Virus record (IMG/VR): IMGVR_UViG_3300005937_000267
Location: 865 to 64,864 of that record
Direction: 5' to 3' (one strand)
From: a virus
Lineage: Duplodnaviria > Caudoviricetes
DNA: 64,000 nt
Part shown: in pieces, positions 7,014 through 30,786 of the stretch
Numbering within the stretch: position 1 is the stretch's first letter
Layout: every line of letters begins with the position of its first letter
Position numbers and translations under genes: made by a program
Notes under the pieces: generated by a model
Seen by the model: only the letters and a program-made list of their open reading frames with translations
Databases searched by the model: none
What the model was told of the DNA's origin: nothing

Positions 7014-7598
7014 TTATCCGAGGTGACGTTGACGCCTGGCAGAGCGTCGCTGAGCGAGGCTGAGCGCCTCGCTCTTGTCTTCTAGTACCAGATCCGCACG
7101 GACCAGTCTCCAGGGTCGAGAGACGCCAGCTACTACCACGGCGGCCATGAGCAGTCCGACGCCCAGCAGCTCGAACCAGCGCTCGGACCACAGCACCAGG
7201 AAGTTGCCGGCCGCGACCAGTCCGACGCTGATCAGCATCGACCTGCTGATCATCGAGCGATATCGCTCGGCCGTGGTCACCTCGACCCACTCCTCCCCCG
7301 GCGGCGGGACCATGCCCTGGCGCTGCCGGTCCGTGCTCCGGCCTACCGCCCCCTGGCCCGTCGGGTGCCTGCGGGACCGGCCCGCGTTGTCTCCGATCAT
7401 GACTTGTCCTTCTCTAGTTTCCGCTTCATTCCGTTCTCTTCCATCCACTGATCGGTGCGCCTGCGCGGACGCCTTGATCTCCAGCTTCTTCACGGCCAGC
7501 GCGTGCAGACGTCTCGCCTCGATCTGGTTCACGGTCCCGCACCATAGCAGGATGCCCACGAACACGGCGAGACACGCGAATGCGAATACCCAGATCAT
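7014..7598 (-). CDS. Hypothetical membrane protein
   Basis: N-terminal and two C-terminal hydrophobic segments; ATGA overlap with upstream gene. Confidence 0.55.
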   Translation of the reverse strand: MIWVFAFACLAVFVGILLWCGTVNQIEARRLHALAVKKLEIKASAQAHRSVDGRERNEAETREGQVMIGDNAGRSRRHPTGQGAVGRSTDRQRQGMVPPPGEEWVEVTTAERYRSMISRSMLISVGLVAAGNFLVLWSERWFELLGVGLLMAAVVVAGVSRPWRLVRADLVLEDKSEALSLAQRRSARRQRHLG

Positions 7599-8107
7599 CT
7601 CTCTGTCCTCTCGATCGCCTGCTGCAAGATCAACCTAGCTCGGTCCTTGTGGCTCTGCTCGTTGTACGCGCGATTCAGACCCGACGGATGCGGGATCGCC
7701 GCGACCGAGGTCCCGTAGTACGGCCACCAGAACCACTCGTAGAACGGCACCCGCTGGGTGAAGAACACCCGCTTCATCCGGGCGCCGAGCAAGATCATCA
7801 CCTTCCCATGCCACTCGTCCCTTCGCTGCTCCGCGACCTGCCTGGCGACGTCCACTGGGAACGCCGCCCCCTTCCCGGCGCGACCGGGGTACTCCTCCAG
7901 CAGGTTGTCGAGATCGTAGTGCCGCTTCAGCGTCCAGTAGTAGTGGCCGTACCGGGAGGTCCCAGGACGGGTGCTGAGGGCCTCGTCCTCGAGCCCGGCA
8001 AGTTGGCACAGGGTCACGCCGACCGGGCCGGAGAGCGGGAAGAGATCCGCGACGATGGCCTTGCCCTTGCCCGGGGCCTCGCCCAAGATCAGCGGCTTCA
8101 TGATCAC
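7595..8107 (-). CDS. Uracil-DNA glycosylase superfamily protein
   Basis: LILGEAPG motif A and IPHPSGLN motif B. Confidence 0.75.
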   Translation of the reverse strand: MIMKPLILGEAPGKGKAIVADLFPLSGPVGVTLCQLAGLEDEALSTRPGTSRYGHYYWTLKRHYDLDNLLEEYPGRAGKGAAFPVDVARQVAEQRRDEWHGKVMILLGARMKRVFFTQRVPFYEWFWWPYYGTSVAAIPHPSGLNRAYNEQSHKDRARLILQQAIERTER

Positions 8108-9174
8108 CTCACCAGCGCGTTCACGTGATCGCGGAGCATCAGCGGCAGCTTGGAGTCACCGACGATCGTGGGATGAATCCAGATCCGCCTCCGGTCCCAC
8201 TCGCCGTCGACGTTCTTGTACGGCTGGCGGCGCCAGTGGCCGCGCCGCAGGAACCGATGCGACAGCTCGCGCCGAGACTCCTGATCTTGGCGCGCGCCCT
8301 CGGCCCGCCGATACTGGATGATCGTGACGTGGCTGTGCCTCATCGTGATCTTCCCCCGCAGGCTCCGGCGCACGTTCGCCGGCAGGCCGGTGTCCGTGAC
8401 CTTGGTGATCGTCTGCTGCATCAGCCGCAGACACGCCACCAGCCACACCATCACCGCGTCCGGTCGGATCTCGGGCTTCAGCGCCGACGGGTCGTAGCCC
8501 TTCGGAAACGAGATCGCCACGCTGCTGCCCTCTCGGTGGATCGTCACCTCCTTCGCCATCTCCGGCGGGATCACCATGCCCAGGCTGAGCGATCTCACCA
8601 CCGGCTCGCCGATCTTGCTGCGGACCACGCACCACGGCGTCAGCCGGGACACGCCCGACATGCCGCCGAGTCCGTACTCCTTGTCTAGCGGGTGCCGCTT
8701 GTCGACGAAGAACACCAGGGTCACGGCGTCGCCGAGCATCGACCACAGCACCGCCGAGGTGGGCATCGGCACGCCGCGCGCGTCGATCTCGACGATGCCG
8801 CCCGGTATCCACATCCAGCCGTGCTCGGTCGGGAAGTCCTCGGCCAAGATCGTCTCGTCGTCCTTCCAGGAATCCGCGGCCGCCGTCACCAGCACGGACA
8901 TCTCGGGTGTCACGTAGTAGTTGTGGCTCAGCTGCAGCCAGTGGCGCAGCTGCTTCTGGAATCCCTGCCAGTCGGCCGGCACCATGCCGTGCTCGGGCGC
9001 CGACTGCTCCAGCCAACGGCCCTCCTTGTCGGTGGTAATCTCGGACGGGCTGACTATGCCGTACTGGGCCTTCGACGATCGCTCGTACCAAGATCGCAGA
9101 TAGCGCGCGTAGAACTCGGTGCCCACGTCCTCGAGCGTCTCCTGCTTCATCAGGAAGCTGTCAAGAGGAGGCAT
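8104..9174 (-). CDS. Hypothetical phage protein
   Basis: 356 aa ORF in operon; basic C-terminal RRGHWRRQPY...RIWIHPTIVGD motif seen in phage proteins. Confidence 0.7.
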   Translation of the reverse strand: MPPLDSFLMKQETLEDVGTEFYARYLRSWYERSSKAQYGIVSPSEITTDKEGRWLEQSAPEHGMVPADWQGFQKQLRHWLQLSHNYYVTPEMSVLVTAAADSWKDDETILAEDFPTEHGWMWIPGGIVEIDARGVPMPTSAVLWSMLGDAVTLVFFVDKRHPLDKEYGLGGMSGVSRLTPWCVVRSKIGEPVVRSLSLGMVIPPEMAKEVTIHREGSSVAISFPKGYDPSALKPEIRPDAVMVWLVACLRLMQQTITKVTDTGLPANVRRSLRGKITMRHSHVTIIQYRRAEGARQDQESRRELSHRFLRRGHWRRQPYKNVDGEWDRRRIWIHPTIVGDSKLPLMLRDHVNALVR

Positions 9175-9568
9175 GGTACTCCTCCATCTTCTTGAGCTCC
9201 AGGCCGTGGTCCTTCAGGCCGAAGATCACCGAGTCCAGGGACCGCACGCCGAAGTTGCGGATGTCGAGCAGGTCCATCTCGGTGCAGCCGACCAGCTGGC
9301 GCACGGTCGTGATCTTGTTCCGCCGCAGGGCGTTGTACGCCCTGACGGTCAGATTGAGGTCCTCGAGAATGATCTCGTCGAGGGGGTCGCACAGCTCGAC
9401 CGTGACGCGGACCACCGCGTCCTCCGGCATCTGGCCGAAGGCCGCGGTCATGAAGCTCCACGGCTGGATCCCTTCCCAATGGTGCGGGGGCTGGAAGTAG
9501 TCCTCCTGGGAGTGGGTGTGCCAGGCGCCGAGCGAGTTGCGGGTGAAGTCACCGACGATCTTGTCCAC
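9161..9568 (-). CDS. RNA polymerase alpha-subunit C-terminal-domain-like protein
   Basis: LEDLNLTVRAYNALRRNKITTVRQLV...DLLDIRNFGVRSL closely resembles actinobacterial RpoA CTD. Confidence 0.85.
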   Translation of the reverse strand: MDKIVGDFTRNSLGAWHTHSQEDYFQPPHHWEGIQPWSFMTAAFGQMPEDAVVRVTVELCDPLDEIILEDLNLTVRAYNALRRNKITTVRQLVGCTEMDLLDIRNFGVRSLDSVIFGLKDHGLELKKMEEYHASS

Positions 9569-17859: not shown

Positions 17860-19257
17860 CTACGCGACCCGCTCTGATAAACTTCCCGGAAGCCTGTCTC
17901 TGTACTTGTTCTTCACGTCGATCGTCGTCTCCCGATCTCCCGACTCCTCGCCGGTGATCGATCCGGGCGTGCCCTCCAGCGCCAGCCGCGCGAAGTGCGC
18001 GATCCACCGGCCAGCGTGGACGGGCACGCCCTTTCCCCATCCCGGCCCAAGATCAGCTGCGTGACGGACAGGGAAGATCTGCCACGCGTCCGGGAACCCC
18101 TGTATCCTGGCGATCTCGCGGTGCGTCAGCGTCCTCGGTTGCCGCGGGTGCACGACCGCGTTGGCCGCCCCGCCCGTCACCACGTTCGCCGGTCTCTCGC
18201 CGCGCCACCTGATCGGCTGGTTGTGCCCCATCGAGAAGTCGGTCTCCACGAGCCTCTCGTCCTTCATGATCGGCTGCACGACGATCTTGCCGTCGTGGTC
18301 GACCTTCTTGAACGACACGTACCGCCAAGATCGCGGAAGCTGTCCGTGATCTTCGTAGTACCGACGCAGCACGTCCGAGATCCGCTCCCCCTGCCGCCAC
18401 GGGGAGACCCCGTCGACCTCGCGCGCCAGCTCCTCGATGCGCGCCAGCATCGGCGGCCTGATCACGTCGTGGCCGTCCACGATGCCGGACCCGTCGTGCA
18501 CGTGGTCGCGGCACCACTGGGAGGCGTCGACGACGTCGGTCTTGGTGATCACGAACTCATCGACGTCGAAGTCCCAGTCCACGCCCGGTATCGCGGACGG
18601 GTACATCTGCGGCAGCATCGTCTGGCTGAGCGGCTCGAGGTCTCTGATCACGTCGTCGAGGGACGGCACCGTGTGGGGATCGTAGACGACCAGCTGATCA
18701 TGGATGAAGTCCCATCGCGTGTTGACGTCGTCGACGCCGAACTCCACGCGGGACGCCACCCAGAAGTACCGCTTCCTGATCGAGCAGCCCCCGGTGCTGG
18801 CGTTGTTCATCAGCACGTGGTACAGCTGGTAGCGAAGCCCAGTCATCTCCTCGAGCTTGTCCCTGAGCTGACGCATCAGCCCGCGGCCCTGCGTGTAGGC
18901 CTGCTGGACGGACTCGAAGATCACGATCTCCGGGCTCACGCGGCCGGCGTACGTGACCAGCTCCCACATGCACTCGTTGATCACCGAGTCCTCGCCTCGG
19001 AACTTCTTCGGCGACAGGGTGCTGAACCCGGAGCACGGTGGGTTGCCGAAGACCATCTGCACGTCGTCCTCGACTGTCCAGTGATCGGGAGGCTCGGCCT
19101 GCGACTCCCAGTGATCGCCGAGCAGCTGGCGGTTGGCCAGCGTGTTCAGCACGCCGAACCCGACGTATCGGGACTTCTTCGCGACCAGCTCCCACCCGGC
19201 CTGCACGGCGCCAAGCGTGAAGCCGCCCCCGAACCCGTGGACGTCGACGGCTCTCAC
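17860..19257 (-). CDS. DNA cytosine-C5 methyltransferase-like protein (atypical motif I)
   Basis: FGNPPCSGFS (motif IV), IFESV (VI), IRKRYFWVA (VIII), RTLTHREIARIQGFPD (IX), GKGVP (X); GTG start overlapping upstream stop. Confidence 0.8.
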   Translation of the reverse strand: MRAVDVHGFGGGFTLGAVQAGWELVAKKSRYVGFGVLNTLANRQLLGDHWESQAEPPDHWTVEDDVQMVFGNPPCSGFSTLSPKKFRGEDSVINECMWELVTYAGRVSPEIVIFESVQQAYTQGRGLMRQLRDKLEEMTGLRYQLYHVLMNNASTGGCSIRKRYFWVASRVEFGVDDVNTRWDFIHDQLVVYDPHTVPSLDDVIRDLEPLSQTMLPQMYPSAIPGVDWDFDVDEFVITKTDVVDASQWCRDHVHDGSGIVDGHDVIRPPMLARIEELAREVDGVSPWRQGERISDVLRRYYEDHGQLPRSWRYVSFKKVDHDGKIVVQPIMKDERLVETDFSMGHNQPIRWRGERPANVVTGGAANAVVHPRQPRTLTHREIARIQGFPDAWQIFPVRHAADLGPGWGKGVPVHAGRWIAHFARLALEGTPGSITGEESGDRETTIDVKNKYRDRLPGSLSERVA

Positions 19258-19670
19258 TTCCAGTACCGCTTCAGCACGGCTGCGACGTTCGGCGCGACCC
19301 AGCCCGCTGGCTTGATCACGTCGTACCCGTTGCCGTACCGGGACCCCTCCCCACTGGACGGCGCTCGCTGCTTCCGCATGTTCGCCTGGTGGACCTCCTG
19401 CCACACCGCCTCCCACGGGTAGCCGAGGACGTGCGCGGTGCCGAGCACGACGTAGACGAGGTCGACCAGCGCGTCGGCCATCTCGGCCTGGTCTCCGTCC
19501 TCGTACGCGTCCTCGAACTCCTCCAGCTCCTCGCGCATCCGCAGTATCCGCAGCTGCATGATCGACTCGAGCTCCTCGTCCTGGGGAGGCTGCTTGGGTC
19601 CGCCGTCGTGGATCACGCTCGGCAGTCCGAACCTGTGGTGGAACTGTCCCACGTCTCCGAAGTTGGTCAC
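19254..19670 (-). CDS. MazG/PRA-PH-like nucleotide pyrophosphohydrolase
   Basis: MREELEEFEDA...ADALVDLVYVVLG...EVHQANMRK. Confidence 0.85.
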   Translation of the reverse strand: MTNFGDVGQFHHRFGLPSVIHDGGPKQPPQDEELESIMQLRILRMREELEEFEDAYEDGDQAEMADALVDLVYVVLGTAHVLGYPWEAVWQEVHQANMRKQRAPSSGEGSRYGNGYDVIKPAGWVAPNVAAVLKRYWK

Positions 19671-19897
19671 GTCACTGTCTCCTGGTTCATCTCCTTAATC
19701 AACTCTTCGGCGTACTCGAACATCGGCACCGCGACGAAGCGTACGATTCCGCTCCATTCCTCTGGCGGCATCTCTCTGATCAAGTTCCAGACTTGACTGG
19801 AAGCGCGAGTTTGTCCTGCTTTGCGGAACGCAGTGTGAATGCCCTCGCCCAGGTAGGCTCTAAAGTCTTCTACTGCTTGTTCGTGGGTCTTGCCCAT
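19667..19897 (-). CDS. Hypothetical protein
   Basis: MGKTHEQAVEDF..., short and relatively AT-rich. Confidence 0.5.
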   Translation of the reverse strand: MGKTHEQAVEDFRAYLGEGIHTAFRKAGQTRASSQVWNLIREMPPEEWSGIVRFVAVPMFEYAEELIKEMNQETVT

Positions 19898-19914
19898 GAT
19901 CCTTCCTCCATTCC

Positions 19915-21201
19915 TCATTGGCGCGCGATGCCGAGCCTTCTCTCGATCTCCGTCACGCATCTCTGTTCTTTGACGCGCCGGGCCAGCAGCCGATACTGGG
20001 CGCCGGCCAGCCACTCGTACGTCGTCCTCGACGAGCACACCGCCTTGACTTTCGTCCTGAAGTCCGCCGCCGACGTGCAGCGCAGCCAAGATCGCAGCCA
20101 GTGGACCTCCTCGTCCGGGTCGTCCAGCGGGAGGATGTGGTCTTGGGTGTCGTACAGCGGGTGCATGAAGCAGATCGTCCCGGACCGGAACGCCTCCCAC
20201 GTCTTGAGCGTCGGCCACCCGGACCCGGACGTCGGCGTGGTGATCGTGGTCTTGGTCTCCTCCATCAGCGGGAAGATGCCCTCGTACGGCAGCGGGTCGA
20301 TCCTGGCGCCGAGCCTCGTCTGACCCTCCTCGCTCCACGTTCCGTAGAAGTACGACGGCTCGGCCGGCATGGCGTACTCGAGCATCGTGTTGACGCGCAT
20401 CAGCTCAGGCCGCATCCCGTAGTTCCGGGCCTCATTCGCGATCACTCCGAAGTCATACCGGCGATCCTCGAACCCCGGCGTGATCTTGGACGGGGGAACG
20501 CTAGTCAGCTCGAGACCGTCGTACGTGTACTTGTCCCGCACCAGCCACTTGCCGTCGACGACGTGCAGGACTAAGTCCTCACCGTACCCGAGCTCGCTCG
20601 GCGATCGCGGGTCTTCGTACCTCTCGACCCACTGCTGCCGGTCCCAGCAGAACTGGCTCAAGATCGACTGCGCTCTGGGCCACTTCAAGTCGCGGCCCTT
20701 GAGGTAGTTCCTGACGTCGGGCAGTAGCCAGATCTCCTCCCTGCTACGCGGCCGCTGCTTGCGCCATCGGTTGATGCCGCGCAGCAGGAAGCCCGAGTAG
20801 TTCAGGAAGCTCTCCTGCGGGTGCGTCAGCTTATCGCGATCATCGACCGTCGGGATCGGCGTGTTGCTGGTTCCGTGCTGGCCGAGCCAGAGCACCACGC
20901 CGTCCAGTCTCTCGAAGGTCGGCATCGTGACCTCGTCGTATCTGGCCACTCGGTCCGCCTGCGACGCGCCCTTCATGAACTTGAGCTCGTCGTGCCAGCC
21001 CTCCCGCCACATGTTGGTGATGTTCGGGCGCGGCGGAACCCAGCCGCGGTTGCGCCCGACCACCAGCCACTGCACGTCCGGGTTCCGGTCCGCCAGCGTC
21101 AGCAGCAGAGCCGCGGGCTCGTTGTCTCCTCCGACCTCGCCCCAGCGAGCCGGGTCGATCTCGATGACTCGACCCAGCTTGCCGTAGGCGATCGTCTTCA
21201 T
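19915..21201 (-). CDS. GT-B glycosyltransferase, T4 DNA beta-glucosyltransferase-like
   Basis: C-terminal WPTLKTWEAFRSGTICFMHPLYDTQDHIL parallels recalled T4 BGT FITLRVWETMASDAVMLIDEEFDTKHRII; N-term MKTIAYGKLG vs MKIAIINMG. Confidence 0.7.
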   Translation of the reverse strand: MKTIAYGKLGRVIEIDPARWGEVGGDNEPAALLLTLADRNPDVQWLVVGRNRGWVPPRPNITNMWREGWHDELKFMKGASQADRVARYDEVTMPTFERLDGVVLWLGQHGTSNTPIPTVDDRDKLTHPQESFLNYSGFLLRGINRWRKQRPRSREEIWLLPDVRNYLKGRDLKWPRAQSILSQFCWDRQQWVERYEDPRSPSELGYGEDLVLHVVDGKWLVRDKYTYDGLELTSVPPSKITPGFEDRRYDFGVIANEARNYGMRPELMRVNTMLEYAMPAEPSYFYGTWSEEGQTRLGARIDPLPYEGIFPLMEETKTTITTPTSGSGWPTLKTWEAFRSGTICFMHPLYDTQDHILPLDDPDEEVHWLRSWLRCTSAADFRTKVKAVCSSRTTYEWLAGAQYRLLARRVKEQRCVTEIERRLGIARQ

Positions 21202-21203
21202 CG

Positions 21204-22286
21204 TCAGAAGATCTGCGGGACGGGCGGAGCGGGCCGCTCACCCTGCGGTGTAGGCTGACCTGGCTCTTGCGCCAGCTGAGGCGCTGGGGCCGGCTGAGCC
21301 TGCTGCGGCGGGGCCTGCTGCGGCGAAGTCGCTTGTGGCTGCTGGCCCTGCTGGGACGCGAGGTACGCCTGGATGATCTGCTGCTGCATCTCGTCCGTGA
21401 TCACCGGCGTCCCGATCTCTCCGTTGCCGACCGAGGGCGTCGGAGGCGCTTGAGGCGCTGGCTGAGTCGCTTGAGGCGCCGGAGCCGCTGGGGCCGTCTG
21501 CGGCGGCCACTGCTGGGGCTGACCCTGCGTCAGATCAGGCATCGGCGGGGCGGCGGCCGGAGGCGGGGCCGGGAGCGGAGCCTGTGACGCGGGCTGCGGG
21601 ACAGGCTGCGGAGCGGGCTGCGGTGGCTGTTGATCTTGCTGTGCCCCCGGCGCCTGCGCGTACTGCTGCGGCGGCGGCGGGGCAGCCATCGGGGCCTGGT
21701 ACGCGCCGGTCTGCGGGGGCGGGAACCCCTGCTGTCCCATGGGCATCCCCATCATCTGCGACGCCGGCGGGTTGATCGTCTCGACGTTGTTCCTGATCAC
21801 GCCGCTGTTCTTGGGGTACTCCCTGTGGGTCAGCTTGATGCGCGCCTGGCGATGGACTAGATCAGTCGCGATCTGGTCCGGTGACGGGTTGGTGTTGAAG
21901 TACGCCTCGTTGAGTCCGAGCGCGTCCATCTGGCGGAAGAAGATCGCCAGCGCGTTCGGGTTCTCCGGCGACACGGTGATGTTGCCCCATGCGACCCGTC
22001 CCGCGTACGGCCCGGTGATCACGCGCCACGTGATCTTGAACATGATCTTTCCGTTGCTCGACTTGGCGGCCTCGGACGCCGAGACCTCCATGTCGTACTC
22101 TGCGATCGGCAGCGGTTGGAGCTGAGTCCCGGCCTCCTCGCGCCACTGCTGCCAGTTCCACGACTCTTGCTCGACGCTGATCCCGCCTCCTCCGGGGGCG
22201 GGGATGGTGCCCATGCCCGGCCACTGGCCCAGCTGCGCTTGCGGTTGCGGGACGCCGGGGACACCCGGCATCTGTGGTGCGGTCAT
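21204..22286 (-). CDS. DUF669-like ssDNA-binding protein with long Pro/Gln/Ala-rich tail
   Basis: LPIAEYDMEV...KSSNGKIMFKITWRVITGPYAGR; adjacent to Sak4 and exonuclease. Confidence 0.7.
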   Translation of the reverse strand: MTAPQMPGVPGVPQPQAQLGQWPGMGTIPAPGGGGISVEQESWNWQQWREEAGTQLQPLPIAEYDMEVSASEAAKSSNGKIMFKITWRVITGPYAGRVAWGNITVSPENPNALAIFFRQMDALGLNEAYFNTNPSPDQIATDLVHRQARIKLTHREYPKNSGVIRNNVETINPPASQMMGMPMGQQGFPPPQTGAYQAPMAAPPPPQQYAQAPGAQQDQQPPQPAPQPVPQPASQAPLPAPPPAAAPPMPDLTQGQPQQWPPQTAPAAPAPQATQPAPQAPPTPSVGNGEIGTPVITDEMQQQIIQAYLASQQGQQPQATSPQQAPPQQAQPAPAPQLAQEPGQPTPQGERPAPPVPQIF

Positions 22287-23083
22287 GCTCTGGTCAACTC
22301 CTGTTCTGGGCCGAATACTTGATCAATCATCCCGGGGATCGTCGGCTCATACACGATCGCGGGAAGTCTTCCTTGGCAGCGGTTGCCCGCCTCGTAGATC
22401 GAGCTCGGCTCGACGCCGAGAGCCCGCATCTGGATGGGCGCCTTAGTCGGATCCTCTGGGTCCGGGATGCTGATCACGGCCATGAAGCCGATCACGTCCA
22501 GGAAGTACGGCATCTTGATCTTGAGCTGCCCCTGCACGTACGGTCGCCACTTGCCGTTCTCGTTGTGCGTCATCGACGTCAGCACGACGGCCTGCAGCGG
22601 GTTGATCGGGTGCTCGGTGAGATCGCGGAACTCGCGGACCAGTCTCTCCATGTCGTTGAGCAGCGCGCCCCACTTGCCGAAGTCCATCTCCCCGGTGCCG
22701 TCCGTCAGCTGGTCCTTGCACCGCGTCTGTATCTCGCTAATCGAGTCGACGATCCCGGACCGGAACGGGTGCATCCCTTGGATGAGCCAGTCCTTGCATC
22801 GGACCATCGTGCGGTACTCGCGGACGATCACGACGCACGTGTCCCAGTCCACTTGGTAGACCTGCGAGTCGAGCCTCGGCTCGATCCGGCCCTGGCCCAG
22901 CGTCGGCGGGGCCTCGAACATCGGGTCCCAGAAGATCTTCCTGGTCCCCGGACGATCGGGCAAGAACCGGTACGCCGCCTCGGCGTCCATGAGCAGTCTC
23001 GGGGCCGGCGCGGTGTTCGCCAGCGTCGACTTTCCGATCTTGGTCTCTGCGTGGACCATGATCGAGAGCGCCCTGCTTACCAT
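22283..23083 (-). CDS. AAA_24 / Sak4-like recombinase ATPase
   Basis: VHAETKIGKSTLA, IVDSISE, DVIGF. Confidence 0.75.
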   Translation of the reverse strand: MVSRALSIMVHAETKIGKSTLANTAPAPRLLMDAEAAYRFLPDRPGTRKIFWDPMFEAPPTLGQGRIEPRLDSQVYQVDWDTCVVIVREYRTMVRCKDWLIQGMHPFRSGIVDSISEIQTRCKDQLTDGTGEMDFGKWGALLNDMERLVREFRDLTEHPINPLQAVVLTSMTHNENGKWRPYVQGQLKIKMPYFLDVIGFMAVISIPDPEDPTKAPIQMRALGVEPSSIYEAGNRCQGRLPAIVYEPTIPGMIDQVFGPEQELTRA

Positions 23084-23084
23084 C

Positions 23085-24107
23085 TCACGACTTCTCCTTC
23101 TGTTGGTCTCGGTAGTACCGCTCGTGCGGGTCTCTGTGCTCGTAGTGTCTCTCGATCAAGCCCTCCACGTTGCTGCCGTCGTCGAACAGCGGGCACGCCG
23201 CGAGGAAGTCGCACTTCCACGTGCAGTCGCGCGACGGCCTGGGCGGGCAGTGGTACTGGTGATCGCCCCCGCGGTCCAGCTCGTCGCGCGTGTCGACGAT
23301 CTCCTGCAGCACCTTGTGGACGCGCTGCCACGTAGTCGCGATGATCTTGCTGTTGTGCCTGACCTCGACCTGCTTGTAGAACGGCGGCCTCGCGGCGGCG
23401 GTGCGCTTGACTCGCCTCAGCATCAGGTACAGCGCGCCGTCGGTGCGCCACATCAGCGATCTTCCATCGTGATCTTGCCCGTCGCCCAGCTCGGTGTTGA
23501 CCTTGGCACGGTAGCGGGCGTCTAACTGCTCGAGCAAGTGATAGAACCTGGCCTGCTCGTCGAGGGGAAGCATCGCCTCCAGCTCTCCGAAGCTGCCCGT
23601 GGTCTTCCAGTCCCTGAACAGCCGGGCGCCGTCTGATCGTCTCTGGATGCGCTGATCGAGCATGCCGCGCATCTTGACGCCCGGGATGCCCGAGTCCACC
23701 TCGACGATCTCCTCCACGGAGACGACGTCGTACTCGGCGTCGATGGCGTTCTCGGCAGCCCACTCGAGGTACCCCTCCAGCATGGCGTGGGCGAGGTCCT
23801 GCTCCTCCTGAAGCTTAGTGATCTTGTCGTCCATCCCGACCTCGATCAACTTCTGGATGTCGTCGTAGTAGATCTCGTCGATGGCCTCGATGGGATTCAC
23901 GCCGCGCTCGTACATCGCCTGCAGCGCCGCGTGGATGCGGGCGCCGAGGTTGCGGACGCCGGTCGGGTCCTCGAGCTCGCGACGAAACCCGAGCTCGCGA
24001 TAGTAGGTGAGCCACCACCTGCGGCGGCAGTCCTTGAATGTCTGGATCTCGCTGTTCGAGATGCTCAAGATCGTCAGCGGCTGTCTGACGAGCGATGACT
24101 TGGTCAT
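23085..24107 (-). CDS. PD-(D/E)XK RecB/Cas4-like exonuclease
   Basis: ISNSEIQTFKDCRRRW, GARIHAALQ, RGMLDQR, RDWKT, C-terminal CxWxCxFxxxC. Confidence 0.85.
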   Translation of the reverse strand: MTKSSLVRQPLTILSISNSEIQTFKDCRRRWWLTYYRELGFRRELEDPTGVRNLGARIHAALQAMYERGVNPIEAIDEIYYDDIQKLIEVGMDDKITKLQEEQDLAHAMLEGYLEWAAENAIDAEYDVVSVEEIVEVDSGIPGVKMRGMLDQRIQRRSDGARLFRDWKTTGSFGELEAMLPLDEQARFYHLLEQLDARYRAKVNTELGDGQDHDGRSLMWRTDGALYLMLRRVKRTAAARPPFYKQVEVRHNSKIIATTWQRVHKVLQEIVDTRDELDRGGDHQYHCPPRPSRDCTWKCDFLAACPLFDDGSNVEGLIERHYEHRDPHERYYRDQQKEKS

Positions 24108-25936
24108 GCTGCCACTCCCAGAAGCTGTCGTATGAATGTCCTGTCGCGGACGACTTCCTCGAATCGCTCCGCCTTCATGAACAGCAGCTCGCGCTGCCGC
24201 TCCTCGATCGTCTCAGTGGACATGATGTCGATGATGTCGATCTGATCGTGGACCTCGGACCCGATCCGGTGGATGCGGTCCTCGGCCTGGCTGTTGTCGA
24301 TCTTGCTCCAGCTTCGCTGCAGAAAGATCGCGGTGCTGGCCCGAGTCAGCGTGATCCCGATGCCGCCGGCTGAGATCGTGCACAGCATGGCGCGCAGCCC
24401 ACCCGCCTGGAAGTCGCGGATGGCGATCTCGCGGTCGATGGCCGTCTGGTCTCCGGTGATCAAGCCGTACTTGATGCCAGCGGCGTCGAGTCGCTTGGCC
24501 GCTAAGTCGATCAGCTGCTTGTGGAGGGCGAACACGACGACCGGCGCGTCTCCCATGTCCTCCAAGATCTCCATCAGCGCGTCGATCTTGCAGCTCGGGT
24601 CGGACAGCCGGACGTCGCCGTTCTCCATCGCCGCGTGCGCGGACGCGAACTGCGTCAGCCTGGTGAGCTGGACGAGCGGGCTGGCCGCCACGACCACGCC
24701 GCCGTCCAGGTGCGCGATCATCTCCTTCTCCATCCGGCGATACGCCTGCGCCTGCTTGTGCGCCATCGTGACGTAGCGGGTGGAGTAGACCTTCGGCGGC
24801 AGCTGCTTGAGCACGGCCTCCTTCGGCATGCGGCGCATGATCGGATCGATGATCTTGTAGAACTCGGCGCGCCTCTCAGGATCCGGGCTCAGCCCTACGA
24901 CCTGCATCGGTCCGAAGGCGTTGAACGACAGGCGACAGAAGCGCTCGATGTACAGCTGGCGGGTCGGGAACTCGCGCGGCCTGATCAGCCGCAGCGCCGG
25001 CCACAGGTCGTGCGGCGCGTTGCCTATCGGGGTGCCCGTGAGGGCGAAGACGTAGCGGGCTGGCGCGATCTTGAACGTGGCGGACCCCTCGCGCAGCGCC
25101 CAGCAAGCGCGGGTCTGCTTGGCCTTCGGGTTCTTGAGCCGGTGCGCCTCGTCGACGACGATCGTCTGCCACGTCCGGTTCAGCTCCTTGCGGCAGTTCT
25201 CGCAGCGCGACTGGCTGTTGCTCTTGGTGTCCGCCAGCGTCGGGTCGCACACGATGCAGCGCTTCAGTCTGATGCTGCCGTACGCGGCCAGCCGCGAATG
25301 GGCGCGGACCGTCTCGTAGCTGATCACGTGGACGTGCGCCGGGGTCATGATCATCTCGCGCCGCTTGGCGGCTGGCGTCCCTCCCGGGATCGCCACGACC
25401 GTCATGCCCGGCCACCACCTGTCGAGCTCCCGCTGCCAGGTCAGGACCATGCTGTTCGGCGCGATCACGAGCGCCGGGAACGGGTTCTCGCCGCGGCGCA
25501 CGAGCTCCATGAACGTCCTGATCGTCTGGACGGTCTTGCCCAGCCCCATGTCGTCGCACAACAGGGCCTGCTCGGCGAACGCCATGAACTGGACGCCGGC
25601 GCGCTGGAACCCGTAGAGGTCCTCGTCGCCGGCGGCGTCGAGGGCGACCCGCAGCTCGAGGGCGGGCGCGATCCTGGCGGCGTGCTCCTCCCTGGCCCAG
25701 GCGTCCAGCGCGGGAGAGACCACCAGGCGGTCGCCGAATATCCCGCGCATGACGACGCACGACGCCCACGACAGCGGGGCCAGGAACCGGTGCTCCTTCT
25801 GGTTGTACCGGACGCCCGGGAGCTGCATGATCAAGTCTTTGTCGCGGAAGGGGAAGGGCGTGACGATGTTCATCAGCGACGGGTCGCGGTCGTACACGTC
25901 TATGGTGATCCCGTAGTCGTCCATTCTTCCTTCCAT
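24104..25936 (-). CDS. SNF2-family DNA helicase
   Basis: DDMGLGKTVQ, VVDEAH, LTGTPI, QAEDRIHRIG. Confidence 0.9.
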   Translation of the reverse strand: MEGRMDDYGITIDVYDRDPSLMNIVTPFPFRDKDLIMQLPGVRYNQKEHRFLAPLSWASCVVMRGIFGDRLVVSPALDAWAREEHAARIAPALELRVALDAAGDEDLYGFQRAGVQFMAFAEQALLCDDMGLGKTVQTIRTFMELVRRGENPFPALVIAPNSMVLTWQRELDRWWPGMTVVAIPGGTPAAKRREMIMTPAHVHVISYETVRAHSRLAAYGSIRLKRCIVCDPTLADTKSNSQSRCENCRKELNRTWQTIVVDEAHRLKNPKAKQTRACWALREGSATFKIAPARYVFALTGTPIGNAPHDLWPALRLIRPREFPTRQLYIERFCRLSFNAFGPMQVVGLSPDPERRAEFYKIIDPIMRRMPKEAVLKQLPPKVYSTRYVTMAHKQAQAYRRMEKEMIAHLDGGVVVAASPLVQLTRLTQFASAHAAMENGDVRLSDPSCKIDALMEILEDMGDAPVVVFALHKQLIDLAAKRLDAAGIKYGLITGDQTAIDREIAIRDFQAGGLRAMLCTISAGGIGITLTRASTAIFLQRSWSKIDNSQAEDRIHRIGSEVHDQIDIIDIMSTETIEERQRELLFMKAERFEEVVRDRTFIRQLLGVAA

Positions 25937-25979
25937 CTCGGTAAGATCCTACCACTGAGCCGTGAAAGCTGTCGACCTC

Positions 25980-26426
25980 TCACTCGTCTTTGGGCCCTAA
26001 TCTGTCGTCCCACCACCCGTGCTTCGCGAGGTATCTCATCAGGTGCCGCGACCCGTCGTTCGCGTTGGGCTTTCCGGGCAGATACCAGCCGAACGCCTTG
26101 AGCCGATCCGTGTACGCGAACGTCTTGGCCTCGGCCTGCAGCTGCATGATCAACTCCTGGTCCGTGTTCACCAGCGAGAAGTACCTGGCGACGCCGATCA
26201 TCTCGAGCGACCACGTCGCCTGCGTGTTCTTGCCCGTCTGAGTCGTGATCAGGAACGTCTCGAAGACGACGTCCAGATCGGTGGCGTAGACCTCCGAGGT
26301 CTTTCTGATCATCTCGCAGCTGTCGACGAACTCGAACTCGTCTGACTGGAAGAACCCAGTGGCGTTGTCGTAGAACGCCAGCCCGGTCATCTTGCCGGGA
26401 TCGCCGGCCAGCACGTAGCGCCTCAT
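25980..26426 (-). CDS. RuvC-like Holliday junction resolvase
   Basis: VLAGDPGKMTGLA, VVFETF, ANDGSRH. Confidence 0.65.
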   Translation of the reverse strand: MRRYVLAGDPGKMTGLAFYDNATGFFQSDEFEFVDSCEMIRKTSEVYATDLDVVFETFLITTQTGKNTQATWSLEMIGVARYFSLVNTDQELIMQLQAEAKTFAYTDRLKAFGWYLPGKPNANDGSRHLMRYLAKHGWWDDRLGPKDE

Positions 26427-26794
26427 GGCTCGATCTCCGGCCTCGGACCGCGATCTTGGTCCGGCGGGCTCCACTTCTTGAAGAGCGCCGCTAGCGCCTG
26501 CTGGTACGTCGGCGCGGTGACGACCACGTAGTCCTCCATCTCGATCGTCAGCGTCGTCGTGTAGTGCGCCGGCCAGCGGTACCACGAGTCGTACGAGGTG
26601 AAGAACTCGTCCGCCTCGACCTCTAACATGGCCTGTGTCATCGAGGTGCTGGCGAAGACCAGCACGCAGTGCCCGTCGATCGGACCCGGAGGAATGCGGA
26701 CGCCGACGATCACGAACTCCGGCTGCTCGTGCGAGCTGAAGTTATCGAGTCGAATGCCCGGCGACCGGCCTTGGTAGCGGTCGACGTCACTCAT
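26423..26794 (-). CDS. Hypothetical protein
   Basis: 123 aa ORF overlapping both neighbours. Confidence 0.55.
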   Translation of the reverse strand: MSDVDRYQGRSPGIRLDNFSSHEQPEFVIVGVRIPPGPIDGHCVLVFASTSMTQAMLEVEADEFFTSYDSWYRWPAHYTTTLTIEMEDYVVVTAPTYQQALAALFKKWSPPDQDRGPRPEIEP

Positions 26795-28550
26795 ATTTCT
26801 GGCCCCAGCTCTTGTCGAGGATGTCTCCAGACCACGTGATCGGCACCGTGTAGTCCACGGCGTCGTTCATGATCTTCACCGACTCGCGGAGCACCTCGTC
26901 CGCGATGTCCTCCGGGACCTCCATGACGATCTCGTCGTGCACCGGCAGCACCATGAACTCGCCGAACCCGCGAGCGTCCAGCAGGCAGAGACAGAGCTTC
27001 AGGATCTCCGCGGCGTGACCGGAGATGAGGTAGTTCAGCAGCGTGTAGTCGCGGAGCTCGTCGGAGGGTAGTCTCCTGCCGTACGGGGTGATCACGTACG
27101 CGGCACCCTCGGCGCGCTTGCGCGCCATGCCGACGTCGTTGATCTCCCTCTGGAACCGCTCCACCCCGGGGAACTTCTCGTTGAAGATCGCGATGAACGT
27201 CTGCATCTGGTCGAGCGTGACGCGCGACGTCGCGGCCATGTTCGCGGCGCCGGCGCCGTAGATGCGTCCGTAGATCGTGTTCTTGGTGAGGTCGCGCCGG
27301 CGGTCGTCTTTCTGTAGCCCGGGATCGAGGAAGATCTGCCTGGCCAGCGCGACGAAGAAGTCCACGCTCTGGTCCGCGAACGCCGCGATCATGCCCGGGT
27401 CCTTGCTGAAGATCGCCATCAGCCGGGCCTCGATCTGGTCCGCGTCGATGGTGATCAGCACGTTGCCTGGTGCCGGAACGAACGCGTGCCTGATCGTAGG
27501 GTCCTTCTTGTGCAGGGTCTGGAGCGGCGGGTCGGTCACCGTCTGGCGCCCGTGCCTGGTGCCGAGGGACCAGATCGTCGCGTGCACCCGGCCGTCGGAG
27601 TCGGCGTCCGCCATGAAGCTGCGGAAGTACGTCCCGACCATCTTCCTCATCTTCCGGGCGCCTAGGATATACCGAGCGAGGTCGTGATCTATGAGCTCGA
27701 GCACCTCCTTGTCCCACGACTGCTTGCCGCCGGGCGTGTACTTGACCGGGACCTCGACGTCGAGTCGCTCGAACGCTCTTCCGATCTGATCGTTGGAGTC
27801 CACCGAGCGAATGCCGTGCTCGGCTGCGAGGTACTCGACGATCGCGCCGACCTTGTCTCCGAACTCGTGGATCTTCTGCTGGCAGTAGTCGAGGTCGACC
27901 AGCGCGCCCTTGCGCATCATGTTCGTGACCACGCGCAGCACCCCGATCTCCAGCCCGTACGCCTCGCGGCAGGAGCCGTTGATCGTCTCGTCCTTGAGCT
28001 TGTCATAGACGTACGCCGTGAGCACGGGATCCATCGCGGCGTACACGGCGTAGTCGGGAAGATCGTACGGCACGGTGGCGAACGTCCACTTGTGGACCGC
28101 CATCTTCTCGTCCAGAGTCCTCTGAGCCGCTGCCGCCGACGGGTCGACGTGCATGGCCGCGAACGCCTTCAGGTTCTTCGATCGCAGCGGATCCACCAGG
28201 TGCGCCATCGTCAGCGTGTCGTTGGTCCGGTCCCACGGCCAGTTGGCGATCTCGGGCGAGTTCTCCATGAGGAACTTGACGTCGAACGGCGAGTTGTGAA
28301 ACACGACCGGGCCGTCGTACCTCTTGATCGCCTCGACGGCCAGGCCCGACCACCGGTGCCACGGGATCGCCCACCCCTTCTCGAGATCGCCGAACTGCAC
28401 CATCCTCAGCGGGTCGCGCTTGTGGTCGAACCCGCCGGTCTCGGTGTCGATGCCGAGCACGTCTCGGCGGCGTCCCAGCCACTCCAGGAAGTCCGCGGCG
28501 TCGCCCATCGTGCGCACCAGTCGCAGGTCCACTATGTCCAAGACTCCCAT
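26787..28550 (-). CDS. DNA polymerase I (family A) with 3'-5' exonuclease
   Basis: IDTETGG, HNSPFD, YAAMD (exo I-III); DADQIEAR (A), KNTIYGRIYG (B), PVHDEI (C). Confidence 0.95.
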   Translation of the reverse strand: MGVLDIVDLRLVRTMGDAADFLEWLGRRRDVLGIDTETGGFDHKRDPLRMVQFGDLEKGWAIPWHRWSGLAVEAIKRYDGPVVFHNSPFDVKFLMENSPEIANWPWDRTNDTLTMAHLVDPLRSKNLKAFAAMHVDPSAAAAQRTLDEKMAVHKWTFATVPYDLPDYAVYAAMDPVLTAYVYDKLKDETINGSCREAYGLEIGVLRVVTNMMRKGALVDLDYCQQKIHEFGDKVGAIVEYLAAEHGIRSVDSNDQIGRAFERLDVEVPVKYTPGGKQSWDKEVLELIDHDLARYILGARKMRKMVGTYFRSFMADADSDGRVHATIWSLGTRHGRQTVTDPPLQTLHKKDPTIRHAFVPAPGNVLITIDADQIEARLMAIFSKDPGMIAAFADQSVDFFVALARQIFLDPGLQKDDRRRDLTKNTIYGRIYGAGAANMAATSRVTLDQMQTFIAIFNEKFPGVERFQREINDVGMARKRAEGAAYVITPYGRRLPSDELRDYTLLNYLISGHAAEILKLCLCLLDARGFGEFMVLPVHDEIVMEVPEDIADEVLRESVKIMNDAVDYTVPITWSGDILDKSWGQKYE

Positions 28551-28557
28551 GATCGTC

Positions 28558-29091
28558 CTACCCTAGCTGGTTGATGTCTGGGCTCGGGTACATCTCGTCC
28601 TCCGGGTCCCCCGTCTGCTCCATGATCGTGAACTCCATCCCGCAGTTGTCCAGGAACAACAGCGTCTTCGTCGGATCTCTGTGCCGGTCGAGCTCCCAGT
28701 CCACGTTCATGACGACGCGCTTGGCGCCTGAGTTCGCGATGATCTTGGCGCACTCCCAGCACGGCGTGCTGGTGACGTAGATCGTCCCGCCCTCGTACGT
28801 GCGGCGGTCTGCGAAGATCACGGCGTTCGCCTCGGCGTGGACCGTGTAGCAGTCGTCGTACGTCGTGGTCCTCAGCTGCGGCGGCTGGATGGCGGCGCGC
28901 GGACAGAACCCTCGGCAGTCCATAGCGTCTTGCGTATCGAACCCACGCGGCGGGCCGTTGTACCCGCTGGACACCAGGCGGTTGCTCCGGTCGACGATCA
29001 CCGCTCCGATCTTGCGCCCGGTGCAGATCGACCTGGCCCCGACCACGCCGGCCACGGCCATCCACGTCTCGTCCCACGTCGGCCTATCCAC
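28558..29091 (-). CDS. dCMP deaminase
   Basis: SGYNGPP, HAEANA, PCWEC. Confidence 0.9.
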   Translation of the reverse strand: MDRPTWDETWMAVAGVVGARSICTGRKIGAVIVDRSNRLVSSGYNGPPRGFDTQDAMDCRGFCPRAAIQPPQLRTTTYDDCYTVHAEANAVIFADRRTYEGGTIYVTSTPCWECAKIIANSGAKRVVMNVDWELDRHRDPTKTLLFLDNCGMEFTIMEQTGDPEDEMYPSPDINQLG

Positions 29092-29899
29092 GGTGGATCC
29101 TCCACGCCTGGTGCTGAAGCCAGCTGTCCTGCGCCCACTCGATCTTGCCGTCTAGCAGGGCCCTGGCCTTGTCCACTTGGTGCTGCCAGGCGCCCAGCGA
29201 TATCGGCACGAGGAGATCTCGATGGCCGTCGGCGGGGTCGGTCAGCTCCTTGACCGCGTCGAAGTCTCGCTCGTAGTACATGTGGAAGCTGTCGGCGTAG
29301 TGGACGTAGGGTCCGACCTCGAGTCCCATCGCCGTCGCCATGTGGACCTGCAGCGAACAGAACTGCGTCACGTCGTAGCACCAGCCCCACCACACGTCGT
29401 TGGATCGCATGTGAGTGTGCATGATCAGCTTTCCGTCTCTGATCATGAAGCTGAGATAGACCGTGCACGGCGTGTCCGCCGTGTCGGCGAACCCGTCGTA
29501 CGCCGGGTCCCAGATCGTGGCGATCGCTTGCCGGCTGTTCATGTCCATCCTGAGAGTGTCCATGATCTTGGGGATCTGCTGCCGCAGCCGGGGACCGTAC
29601 GCCCCGTGGAACGCCTCGCCGTCCAGAAACCGCGCGGTACTCGGGGCCACCGCGGCCATGAGCTGCGGGTACTGTCTGCCGGCGATCAGCTGGAGCGCCT
29701 CGAGCGCGGCGAGCTTGTGGTTCCACTTGCGGTTGATCCCCATCATCAGACAGTCATTCGGGTGCCCGATGATGATCGTCAAGTGCGGGACTTCTTTGGT
29801 CTCGATGCCGCGGGGAGCCACGCTCTCGCCGTGGAACCACAGGTGCTCGACCAGTGGGGACAGCGACTCGGCCGCCGAGTCGAAGTAGAACTCAGGCAC
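29084..29899 (-). CDS. Thymidylate-synthase-fold dCMP hydroxymethylase (or dCMP methylase)
   Basis: AYGPRL, SRQA, DTPCT (catalytic Cys), MRSNDVWWGWCYD with Asp at the position that is Asn in dUMP-specific ThyA. Confidence 0.8.
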   Translation of the reverse strand: MPEFYFDSAAESLSPLVEHLWFHGESVAPRGIETKEVPHLTIIIGHPNDCLMMGINRKWNHKLAALEALQLIAGRQYPQLMAAVAPSTARFLDGEAFHGAYGPRLRQQIPKIMDTLRMDMNSRQAIATIWDPAYDGFADTADTPCTVYLSFMIRDGKLIMHTHMRSNDVWWGWCYDVTQFCSLQVHMATAMGLEVGPYVHYADSFHMYYERDFDAVKELTDPADGHRDLLVPISLGAWQHQVDKARALLDGKIEWAQDSWLQHQAWRIHRG

Positions 29900-29942
29900 C
29901 GCGCCTCCTGTAGTGCGACGGGTGGTCGACCGCGTCAGACAT
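29892..29942 (-). pseudogene. 16-codon minigene, remnant of a DUF3310-like gene
   Basis: MSDAVDHPSHYRRRGA*; DxVxHPxHY is the DUF3310 N-terminal signature; 8-bp overlaps with both neighbours. Confidence 0.45.
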
Positions 29943-30786
29943 GCGCCCCCTCCATGATCGACAGCGCCGACTTGATCGGCGTGGCCTCTATACCGGCGAT
30001 GGCGCACGCGGCGTACGCCTCGGGGTCCGTCGCGATCACCGGCGGACGACCGAACAGCGCCCACGCGTCCTTGATCTGGTCGCCGTCCTGCGACAGCACG
30101 CCGAAGTCCTCGTACGGCATCAGCCGCTCCAAGATCGCGTGGTTCCTGGGCGAGCTCATGGTCGGGGTCAGCGCCGCTCTGAACGCCGGCATGTTCGGAT
30201 GCTGCGGTCGGTGCCCCGAGAGCACGATGAATCGCGGGTTCAGAGACCCGACGTACGACGGCATGGTCGCGATCTTGAGCTGGGACATCTGCGCGGACCT
30301 CGCCAGGTCGATCAGCTGCTTCGGGTAGACCTTCGTCGAGGTCACAGTCCGCCACCCGGGCACGCGCTGGGCGTAGTCGGCGTAGAAGTCCCAGACCAGA
30401 CCGACGTGCTCGGGCCTCAGGAAGCTCTCCCCGCGGTCTCTGAGCCTGTCCTGGACGACGCCTATGGAGTCCGTCACGACCACCCTGAGAGCGCCCAGAG
30501 ACTCGAGGAACAGCTCCACGTGCTTGGCTGCGGGCTCGGTCAGCAGCGACCTCCCGCGGTACAGCGGCCCGTACACCAGCTCGCCGACGTGCCACCGGTC
30601 GAGCACCCACAAAGCCGTCAGGTCGCGCCGGTCGTAGTCGCGCAGCGACCACTCGTACGCGATCATGGGATCCTCGTGGAGCTGGGCGCTGTGCAGCATC
30701 CGGGTCCGGGCGCCGTGCTTCATCGCGAGCCGGTCCTTCAGGTGCGTCTTGCCGGCGCCGTCCACTCCCTCAAGAACGATCAGCAT
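29935..30786 (-). CDS. dNMP (thymidylate-like) kinase with extra C-terminal domain
   Basis: LIVLEGVDGAGKT P-loop, LDRWHVGELVYG. Confidence 0.85.
   Translation of the reverse strand: MLIVLEGVDGAGKTHLKDRLAMKHGARTRMLHSAQLHEDPMIAYEWSLRDYDRRDLTALWVLDRWHVGELVYGPLYRGRSLLTEPAAKHVELFLESLGALRVVVTDSIGVVQDRLRDRGESFLRPEHVGLVWDFYADYAQRVPGWRTVTSTKVYPKQLIDLARSAQMSQLKIATMPSYVGSLNPRFIVLSGHRPQHPNMPAFRAALTPTMSSPRNHAILERLMPYEDFGVLSQDGDQIKDAWALFGRPPVIATDPEAYAACAIAGIEATPIKSALSIMEGAHV

Follow-up and report, generated by a model that had tools for sequence, protein, structure and literature searches.

A candidate T-even-like pathway for glycosylated 5-hydroxymethylcytosine in an uncultured phage with a PolA-type replisome

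A predicted pathway for cytosine hydroxymethylation and glycosylation

The phage genome in IMG/VR record IMGVR_UViG_3300005937_000267 carries a gene module with which, on balance, the phage probably builds 5-hydroxymethyl-dCTP (5hm-dCTP) before replication and glycosylates the resulting 5-hydroxymethylcytosine (5hmC) in its DNA afterwards, following the logic of the T-even phages with different parts. The DNA analysed, called the window below, is a stretch of 64,000 nucleotides comprising all but 864 bases of the 64,864-bp record, which is rated complete by CheckV. Two genes are central to this proposal: a thymidylate synthase (TS) homolog with the active-site residues of T4 gp42, and a glycosyltransferase (GT) with a predicted fold closest to that of T4 beta-glucosyltransferase (BGT). 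A reading of the letters alone (the sequence-only reading) had proposed a T4-like pathway to glycosylated 5hmC on the basis of a TS-fold enzyme, a dNMP kinase, a dCMP deaminase, a MazG-like pyrophosphatase and a GT-B enzyme distributed around PolA. All six genes were found, on the minus strand between positions 19254 and 30786, and the active-site signature, the modelled GT fold, the linkage of the TS homolog to the GT and the PF08761 proteins occupying the pyrophosphatase slot in relatives all point to such a pathway.

29084-29899, minus strand: TS homolog, 271 aa, predicted dCMP 5-hydroxymethylase (5hmdCMP synthase); PF00303, E 3e-16
19915-21201, minus strand: GT-B glycosyltransferase, 428 aa, distant relative of T4 BGT and predicted DNA 5hmC glycosyltransferase (AlphaFold2 (AF2), Foldseek and VIA)

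The chemistry that we infer for this module would begin with the transfer, by the TS homolog, of a hydroxymethyl group from methylene-tetrahydrofolate onto C5 of dCMP. The thymidylate-kinase-type domain of a two-domain protein would phosphorylate 5hm-dCMP, and a host nucleoside diphosphate (NDP) kinase would complete 5hm-dCTP, which the phage PolA would build into DNA. The MazG-type pyrophosphatase would cut the competing dCTP, giving back dCMP, and the dCMP deaminase would send part of the dCMP to dUMP for host dTMP synthesis. The BGT-like GT-B enzyme would then flip 5hmC from the duplex and put a sugar on its hydroxyl, and DNA sugared in this way would resist host restriction nucleases.

The thymidylate synthase homolog

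The TS homolog was compared, by alignment, with the ThyA of E. coli and the gp42 of T4, whose sequences came from annotated records. It contains the motif MRSNDVWWGWCYD, and its active site comprises D143, C146, D169 and D177 (E. coli ThyA numbering), a combination that matches gp42 (NMRSNDVVFGFRND), unlike ThyA. The catalytic cysteine lies in a DTPC motif and is aligned with C146, the acidic residue at position 143 being the Asp three residues ahead of it, as in T4; Asp177 is found in WCYD, opposite RND in T4 and PFN in E. coli. The canonical ThyA residues Asn177 and Leu143 are absent, with Asp at both positions, and an RSND motif retains Asp169, rather than the Asn169 that marks 5-hydroxy-dCMP (5hodCMP) synthases, in the window and in 36/36 relatives. 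Further substrate-binding residues are kept (R21, E58, Y94, R126, R166, S167, H207 and Y209), and an unrelated extension stands in place of the ThyA C-terminal tail.

In a recent experimental paper (PMC13326640, published in 2026), N177D is described as the switch of substrate to dCMP, L143D/E as the mark of hydroxymethyl over methyl products, linked to water access, and D169N as the mark of 5-hydroxy-dCMP synthases that depend on flavin, among them those of RB69 and DLP3. The sequence-only reading had held that Asp for Asn at this position shifts specificity from dUMP to dCMP; D177 is indeed present, the signature around it is that of T4 gp42, and the rule is that of PMC13326640. The D143/C146/D169/D177 signature is found in all 36 of the 36 distinct GT-linked TS homologs of relatives, and also in DSL-LC01 and in Gordonia phages GMA2 and Phendrix. 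Among solved structures in the Protein Data Bank (PDB), the closest relative by sequence is the CMP hydroxymethylase MilA (E 6e-19), followed by entry 9iqu, which has N at position 169 in the alignment and is probably the 5-hydroxycytosine (5hoC) enzyme of phage HY126, as judged solely from neighbouring HY126 entry codes.

The gene most likely starts at a GTG at 29899, behind an AGGAGG site, and this start was preferred to a long mechanical open reading frame (ORF) extending to 30652, which is most likely not the TS gene.

A gene named 'thymidylate synthase' in GMA2 (locus L089, 6998-7840) and Phendrix (locus L090, 6923-7807) lies between a 'thymidylate kinase' gene and a dCMP deaminase gene and encodes Asp143, Asp177 and Asp169. 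Because it has Asp at 143 and 177 and retains Asp169, its product is, judging from these residues, more likely to be a dCMP hydroxymethylase.

The glycosyltransferase

The GT matched no family in Pfam (threshold E 0.01) or in PHROGs, and its 142 relatives in a large protein collection are almost all metagenomic, unnamed proteins. An AF2 model built on 43 relatives had a pLDDT of 94.2 and a pTM of 0.92, and the top six Foldseek matches of this model in the PDB were all T4 BGT (E about 1e-8). Comparison with BGT structure 1j39 by VIA gave a Z score of 23.8 and a root-mean-square deviation (rmsd) of 3.3, with 308/344 residues aligned; the next family, BshA-type GT-B enzymes, reached Z 19.7, and T4 alpha-glucosyltransferase (AGT) Z 18.6, placing BGT about 4 Z units above generic GT-B enzymes. 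The resemblance to BGT that the sequence-only reading had noticed is thus borne out by structural comparison of 19915-21201, in which BGT ranks top. In the viral structure library BFVD, the match at rank 2 is named DNA beta-glucosyltransferase.

Alignment of profiles by hhalign gave a probability of 23% and an E value of 9e-4 for BGT, which belongs to CAZy family GT63, over the C-terminal 69 columns only. The TLKTWE motif of the GT is aligned with TLRVWE of BGT, such that K333 and E336 correspond to R269 and E272, which make UDP-sugar contacts in BGT; among 43 sequences, K333 is invariant and E336 nearly so. D162 and R164 are also invariant, and D162 lies in a PDVR motif after a strand, as in BGT. 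Duplex 5hmC is the predicted acceptor, on the strength of the linkage of the GT to the TS homolog.

BLASTP revealed no match between the GT and T4 AGT. A tblastn search of 50,697 phage records matched no more than 50 N-terminal residues, in four Enterococcus phage records, and the Gordonia phages among these records showed no match. A scan of 185,579 species genomes yielded one contig only, from a metagenome-assembled genome (MAG), and this collection thus gave no indication of a prophage form.

Conservation of the module in related phages

The comparative set consisted of 78 IMG/VR loci, together with three other contigs holding a GT relative. About 50 loci share one order: kinase, TS homolog, deaminase, PolA, SNF2, nuclease, AAA_24, DUF669, GT, a variable cassette and a C5 cytosine DNA methyltransferase. 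Recurrence on this scale among related IMG/VR contigs shows that the arrangement is not due to chance. In loci with no visible TS homolog, the fetched DNA ends before the expected place, with the exception of L050, in which the context is different.

The TS homolog and the GT are still clustered in three rearranged complete genomes, in the order methyltransferase-TS-GT (L012), methyltransferase-GT-MazG-TS-deaminase (L081) or GT-MazG-kinase-TS (L076), a linkage that goes beyond inherited synteny. Another complete genome, G001, has both the TS homolog and the GT and lacks the deaminase, which is therefore not an obligatory step between them.

In relatives, 112 ORFs between the GT and the methyltransferase were scanned. 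They included 39 PF08761 (dUTPase_2) and two PF01503 proteins, 22 NAD epimerases/dehydratases, 12 RGP proteins (PF03214), nine sugar-phosphate nucleotidyltransferases (NTP_transferase), six STELLO-like proteins and a few members of other families. The GT is followed immediately by a protein of 330-400 aa in many relatives (L003:11337-12335, L017:11307-12335, L027:11358-12365 and about 25 more loci), and the RGP ORFs (a family of plant UDP-arabinopyranose mutases) and STELLO ORFs that follow the GT are often paired with an NAD epimerase. These RGP, STELLO and epimerase genes suggest that the clade is glycodiverse, with furanose or pentose sugars as donors. In the window, only a 76-aa ORF and MazG lie between the GT and the methyltransferase, and no NDP-sugar genes were found in the genome. 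Since the genome has no sugar-tailoring genes, a host NDP-sugar would be needed, most likely an NDP-hexose, for example UDP-glucose.

The kinase and the other genes of the module

The remaining genes of the module that flank the replication genes or lie among them are as follows.

29935-30786, minus strand: two-domain protein, 283 aa, with an N-terminal thymidylate-kinase/YorR-type P-loop kinase (predicted 5hm-dCMP kinase) and a degenerate C-terminal domain resembling uracil-DNA glycosylase (UDG)
28558-29091, minus strand: dCMP deaminase, 177 aa; PF00383, E 1e-19; PHROG 174, E 2e-38
26787-28550, minus strand: family A DNA polymerase (PolA) with a 3'-5' exonuclease domain; PF00476, E 2e-55; PF01612, E 6e-6
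19667-19897, minus strand: small ORF, 76 aa, between the GT and MazG, read from the sequence
19254-19670, minus strand: MazG/PRA-PH-type all-alpha NTP pyrophosphatase, 138 aa; PF01503, E 4e-14; PHROG 671, E 4e-25

The nucleotide kinase expected by the sequence-only reading is present, but it carries a second, UDG-like C-terminal domain that went unmentioned. The protein matches PHROG 761 (thymidylate kinase, E 9e-9), the window copy has no match in Pfam, and the kinase motifs are a GVDGAGKT P-loop, DRWH as the DR(W/Y) motif and RLRDRGE with the LID arginines. In VIA comparisons of residues 1-172 of the AF2 model (pLDDT 90.7), SPbeta YorR (2axp) scored Z 17.0 and M. tuberculosis thymidylate kinase (TMK) Z 14.0; T4 gp1 was not among the best 50 structural matches listed for the model, which is uninformative either way. 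Members of the family match PF02223 in 17 of 21 cases and PF03167 (UDG) in 2 of 21. Most kinase relatives have the second domain (for example L003:244-1215 and L004:329-1246), two being a kinase alone, and its consensus in relatives (GDVR..PAF..TSG..NACDVD..VPHPQ..RRFHH) presumably follows the motif layout of the UDG superfamily (GDVR, PAF..TSG, VPHPQ). In the window copy (C-terminal residues about 170-283), the HPQ motif has been lost. Fusion of a kinase to a base-flipping fold raises the possibility of action on DNA instead of free nucleotides. A separate 170-aa protein of the UDG superfamily is encoded in the same early block, at 7595-8107 on the minus strand (PF03167, E 1e-5; PHROG 12275, E 1e-18).

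The deaminase gene overlaps the stop of the TS homolog by 8 nt, and its zinc motifs, HAEANA and PCWEC, are intact. PolA is the replicase that would need to accept the modified dNTP. Between PolA and the GT lie two small ORFs and genes for an SNF2 helicase, a PD-(D/E)XK nuclease, an AAA_24 ATPase and a DUF669 protein resembling single-stranded DNA-binding proteins. The 76-aa ORF has no annotation; it has a strong ribosome-binding site (RBS), and its stop overlaps the MazG start (GTGA). An ORF at 19667-20338 that overlaps the GT was rejected as probably spurious, the 76-aa gene starting at 19897 having an RBS.

The acidic motifs of MazG are intact, and this enzyme is predicted, by analogy, to deplete dCTP, and possibly dUTP, as a functional counterpart of T4 gp56. 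PF01503 and PF08761 belong to one superfamily. The T4 gp56 dCTPase itself matches PF08761, and the MazG of the window, a PF01503 protein, lies outside that family.

The methyltransferase and the extent of replacement

The gene list of the sequence-only reading is correct as given, but it omitted two members of the same gene string: the 76-aa ORF (19667-19897) described above and a methyltransferase.

17860-19257, minus strand: C5 cytosine DNA methyltransferase; PF00145, E 3e-19

All the catalytic motifs of this enzyme are present (GFGGG, GNPPCSGFS, ESV, QGFPD and GKGVPV), and it probably starts at a GTG at 19257 that overlaps the stop of MazG (GTGA), an arrangement indicative of translational coupling. 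At least 52 of 55 relatives retain the PPC motif. All five of the rearranged or extra genomes tested (5/5) have the gene, and in two it lies beside the TS homolog or the GT; it remains linked to both even in rearranged genomes L012 and L081.

A cytosine already substituted at C5 is not a substrate for a C5 methyltransferase, so the presence of this enzyme implies either partial replacement or another role for the methyltransferase. Complete replacement of cytosine is doubtful, and replacement may be partial, given that an intact C5 methyltransferase is encoded in the same module. The very heavy modification load foreseen in the sequence-only reading assumes complete replacement and is open to the same doubt, and the GC content of the window is 64.9% rather than roughly 70%.

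Genome context and probable host

The early and replication genes form a minus-strand block at about 7.0-35.5 kb, and the structural genes lie in plus-strand blocks. A 135-aa protein encoded at 9161-9568 on the minus strand has, as its C-terminal half, an RNA polymerase alpha C-terminal domain (PF03118, E 6e-17). No tRNA genes were found in the window, and a megablast search of the whole region against phage records gave no match. The host is probably an actinobacterium. This sequence-based assignment draws on the presence of WhiB in relatives, on GC content and on Gordonia and Microbacterium phages, in which the nearest cultured homologs lie; these lines are used because no WhiB was found in this genome.

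No TET/JBP dioxygenase, ThyX or second TS homolog was found when sought in the genome, the TS homolog being the sole copy, so these other routes to modified pyrimidines are missing. A survey of palindromes over the whole window showed that no C-containing palindrome was strongly avoided. The lowest values were a mild depletion of GGCC (0.83 of expectation) and four observed AGGCCT against 13 expected; GGATCC was over-represented (26 against 15 expected). The lack of strongly avoided C-containing palindromes would be compatible, weakly, with a broad protection of the DNA.

Alternative explanations

Several points weigh against the pathway proposed here. The GT is just 12% identical to BGT, its DNA acceptor and its sugar are predictions, and the equivalence of D162 to the catalytic base D100 of BGT is suggested by motif likeness only (PDVR versus TDIR). 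The specificity of MazG for dCTP is assumed, and BLASTP shows no similarity between this protein and T4 gp56 (E 0.18). The residue rules for TS products come from a limited set of tested enzymes. An intact and conserved C5 methyltransferase lies in the module and would have no substrate if every cytosine had a C5 substituent. Finally, searches of the literature yielded no chemical data for this phage or any relative, and no experimental report of 5hmC in actinophages, including Streptomyces phages, Gordonia phages and DSL-LC01.

Among the alternatives, the one to which we give the most weight, unlikely as it is, would have 5hmC incorporated and left bare, with the GT acting on a non-DNA acceptor, such as a host envelope polymer or a protein. 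The enzymes BshA, TarM, PimA and WaaG, at Z 17-20 to the GT model, act on small molecules or wall polymers, and NDP-sugar genes are lacking in the window. T4 BGT nevertheless scores about 4 Z units above these four enzymes, BFVD neighbours of the GT are named DNA glucosyltransferases, and the GT lies within the replication module, linked to the TS homolog even in rearranged genomes. The TS homolog might also make another C5 product (the 5-methyl-dCMP of XP12, the 5-hydroxy-dCMP of RB69 or the hydroxymethyl-CMP of MilA), with downstream chemistry unlike that of T4. This explanation, which we place next and also hold to be unlikely, draws on the fact that the best solved relative, MilA, acts on CMP and that the product rules come from few characterised enzymes. 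It is opposed by Asp143, the hydroxymethyl marker, by Asp169 in place of the Asn of all tested 5hoC synthases, by the invariance of these residues in 36/36 relatives, and by the position of the gene within a replication module, where its neighbours encode a dNMP-type kinase and a dCMP deaminase.

It is quite improbable that the hydroxymethyl group ends up on uracil, the deaminase turning 5hm-dCMP into 5hm-dUMP, such that 5-hydroxymethyluracil (5hmU) replaces thymine, the GT makes a glycosyl-5hmU resembling base J and the cytosines are left free for the methyltransferase. The genes for the TS homolog and the deaminase share 8 nt in the window and are neighbours in nearly all relatives, PF08761 enzymes are dUTPases besides dCTPases, and the conserved C5 methyltransferase would gain a substrate. 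To our knowledge, no phage makes 5hmU by deaminating 5hm-dCMP, and T4 has a dCMP deaminase yet makes no 5hmU. The best fold match of the GT is, moreover, a 5hmC enzyme, no deaminase accompanies the TS homolog and the GT in complete genome G001, and the known 5hmU phages all use an Asn177 dUMP hydroxymethylase (PMC13326640). Less probable again is a module in which the C5 methyltransferase is a working part, either because bulk glycosyl-5hmC is accompanied by site-specific 5-methylcytosine (5mC) on residual cytosine or because covalent C6 chemistry on 5hmC leads to a site-specific further derivative; the kinase-UDG-like fusion might likewise act on DNA. Ordinary nucleotide salvage, in which a true TS, a thymidylate kinase, a deaminase and a house-cleaning MazG stand beside an unrelated GT and the DNA is modified only by site-specific 5mC, appears very improbable, more so than any of the foregoing. 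The public records of relatives do name these genes thymidylate synthase and thymidylate kinase, but Asn177 and Leu143 of ThyA are both Asp in every member, and the ThyA C-terminal tail has been exchanged for an unrelated extension.

Comparison with known systems

The T4 set of enzymes comprises gp42 (dCMP hydroxymethylase), gp1 (dNMP kinase), gp56 (dCTPase/dUTPase), Cd (dCMP deaminase) and alpha- and beta-glucosyltransferases. The module described here shares with the T-even pathway to glucosyl-5hmC the same set of activities in the same predicted order of steps, the gp42 signature in the TS homolog, BGT as the best fold match of the GT and, in relatives, a pyrophosphatase slot filled from the Pfam family of gp56. 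It differs in its probable actinobacterial host and PolA-type replisome, in a kinase that is of the TMK/YorR type and fused to a UDG-like domain rather than gp1-like, and in the MazG/PRA-PH pyrophosphatase of the window. There is one GT, not two, and it is 12% identical to BGT, 77 aa longer and without a Pfam match; the cluster includes a C5 methyltransferase, and its genes are split around the replication genes.

The glycosylated 5-hydroxycytosine pathway of RB69, DLP3 and RL38JI (PMC13326640) likewise leads from a dCMP-acting TS homolog through a dNMP kinase to DNA glycosyltransferases, and the relatives studied here also have NDP-sugar tailoring genes by the GT, including a furanose-donor mutase family. 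The synthases of that pathway are D169N enzymes using flavin and O2, whereas the TS homolog of the window keeps D169, so the predicted base is 5hmC and not 5hoC. The phage clusters of TET, C5 methyltransferase and glycosyltransferase genes (PMC8256090) also bring together a C5 methyltransferase and a DNA-type GT, and are likewise predicted to yield sugared 5hmC. No TET/JBP dioxygenase is present here, however, and 5hmC would come from the nucleotide pool via the TS homolog, so the methyltransferase would not be needed to make it. MilA, from mildiomycin biosynthesis (PDB 5b6d, 5jnh), shares Asp at positions 143 and 177 (PMC13326640) but uses a ribonucleotide substrate in the production of a Streptomyces antibiotic, whereas the gene described here lies in a phage replication module beside a dCMP deaminase gene.

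The nearest named genome is that of DSL-LC01, a metagenome-assembled phage of Actinomycetia. Like GMA2, Phendrix and GodonK, which are cultured phages of Gordonia, it has the kinase-TS-deaminase-polymerase order and the TS signature of the window, and it also has a GT, a sugar mutase (UDP-galactopyranose mutase) and MazG at the same positions. The records of DSL-LC01 and the Gordonia phages call these genes thymidylate synthase and kinase, with no modification reported, and the DSL-LC01 paper does not discuss DNA modification.

Implications

As an anti-restriction strategy, the logic of the T-even pathway is already known; what differs, in this little-studied lineage of phages, is the parts, namely a distant BGT relative, a TMK-UDG-like fusion, MazG and a linked C5 methyltransferase, together with the PolA replisome and the probable actinobacterial host. 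The label 'thymidylate synthase' in public records hides a likely cause of phage DNA that is resistant to restriction or hard to sequence. The conserved C5 methyltransferase raises the question of whether replacement is complete or two cytosine marks coexist. If the proposed pathway is correct, nearly one base in three could be modified, and cytosine replacement and sugar decoration in the T-even style would extend to a large, uncultured clade of high-GC phages with a PolA replisome. This clade looks glycodiverse, with NDP-sugar genes swapped beside the same GT, and may supply new DNA glycosyltransferases and new sugar-5hmC chemistries.

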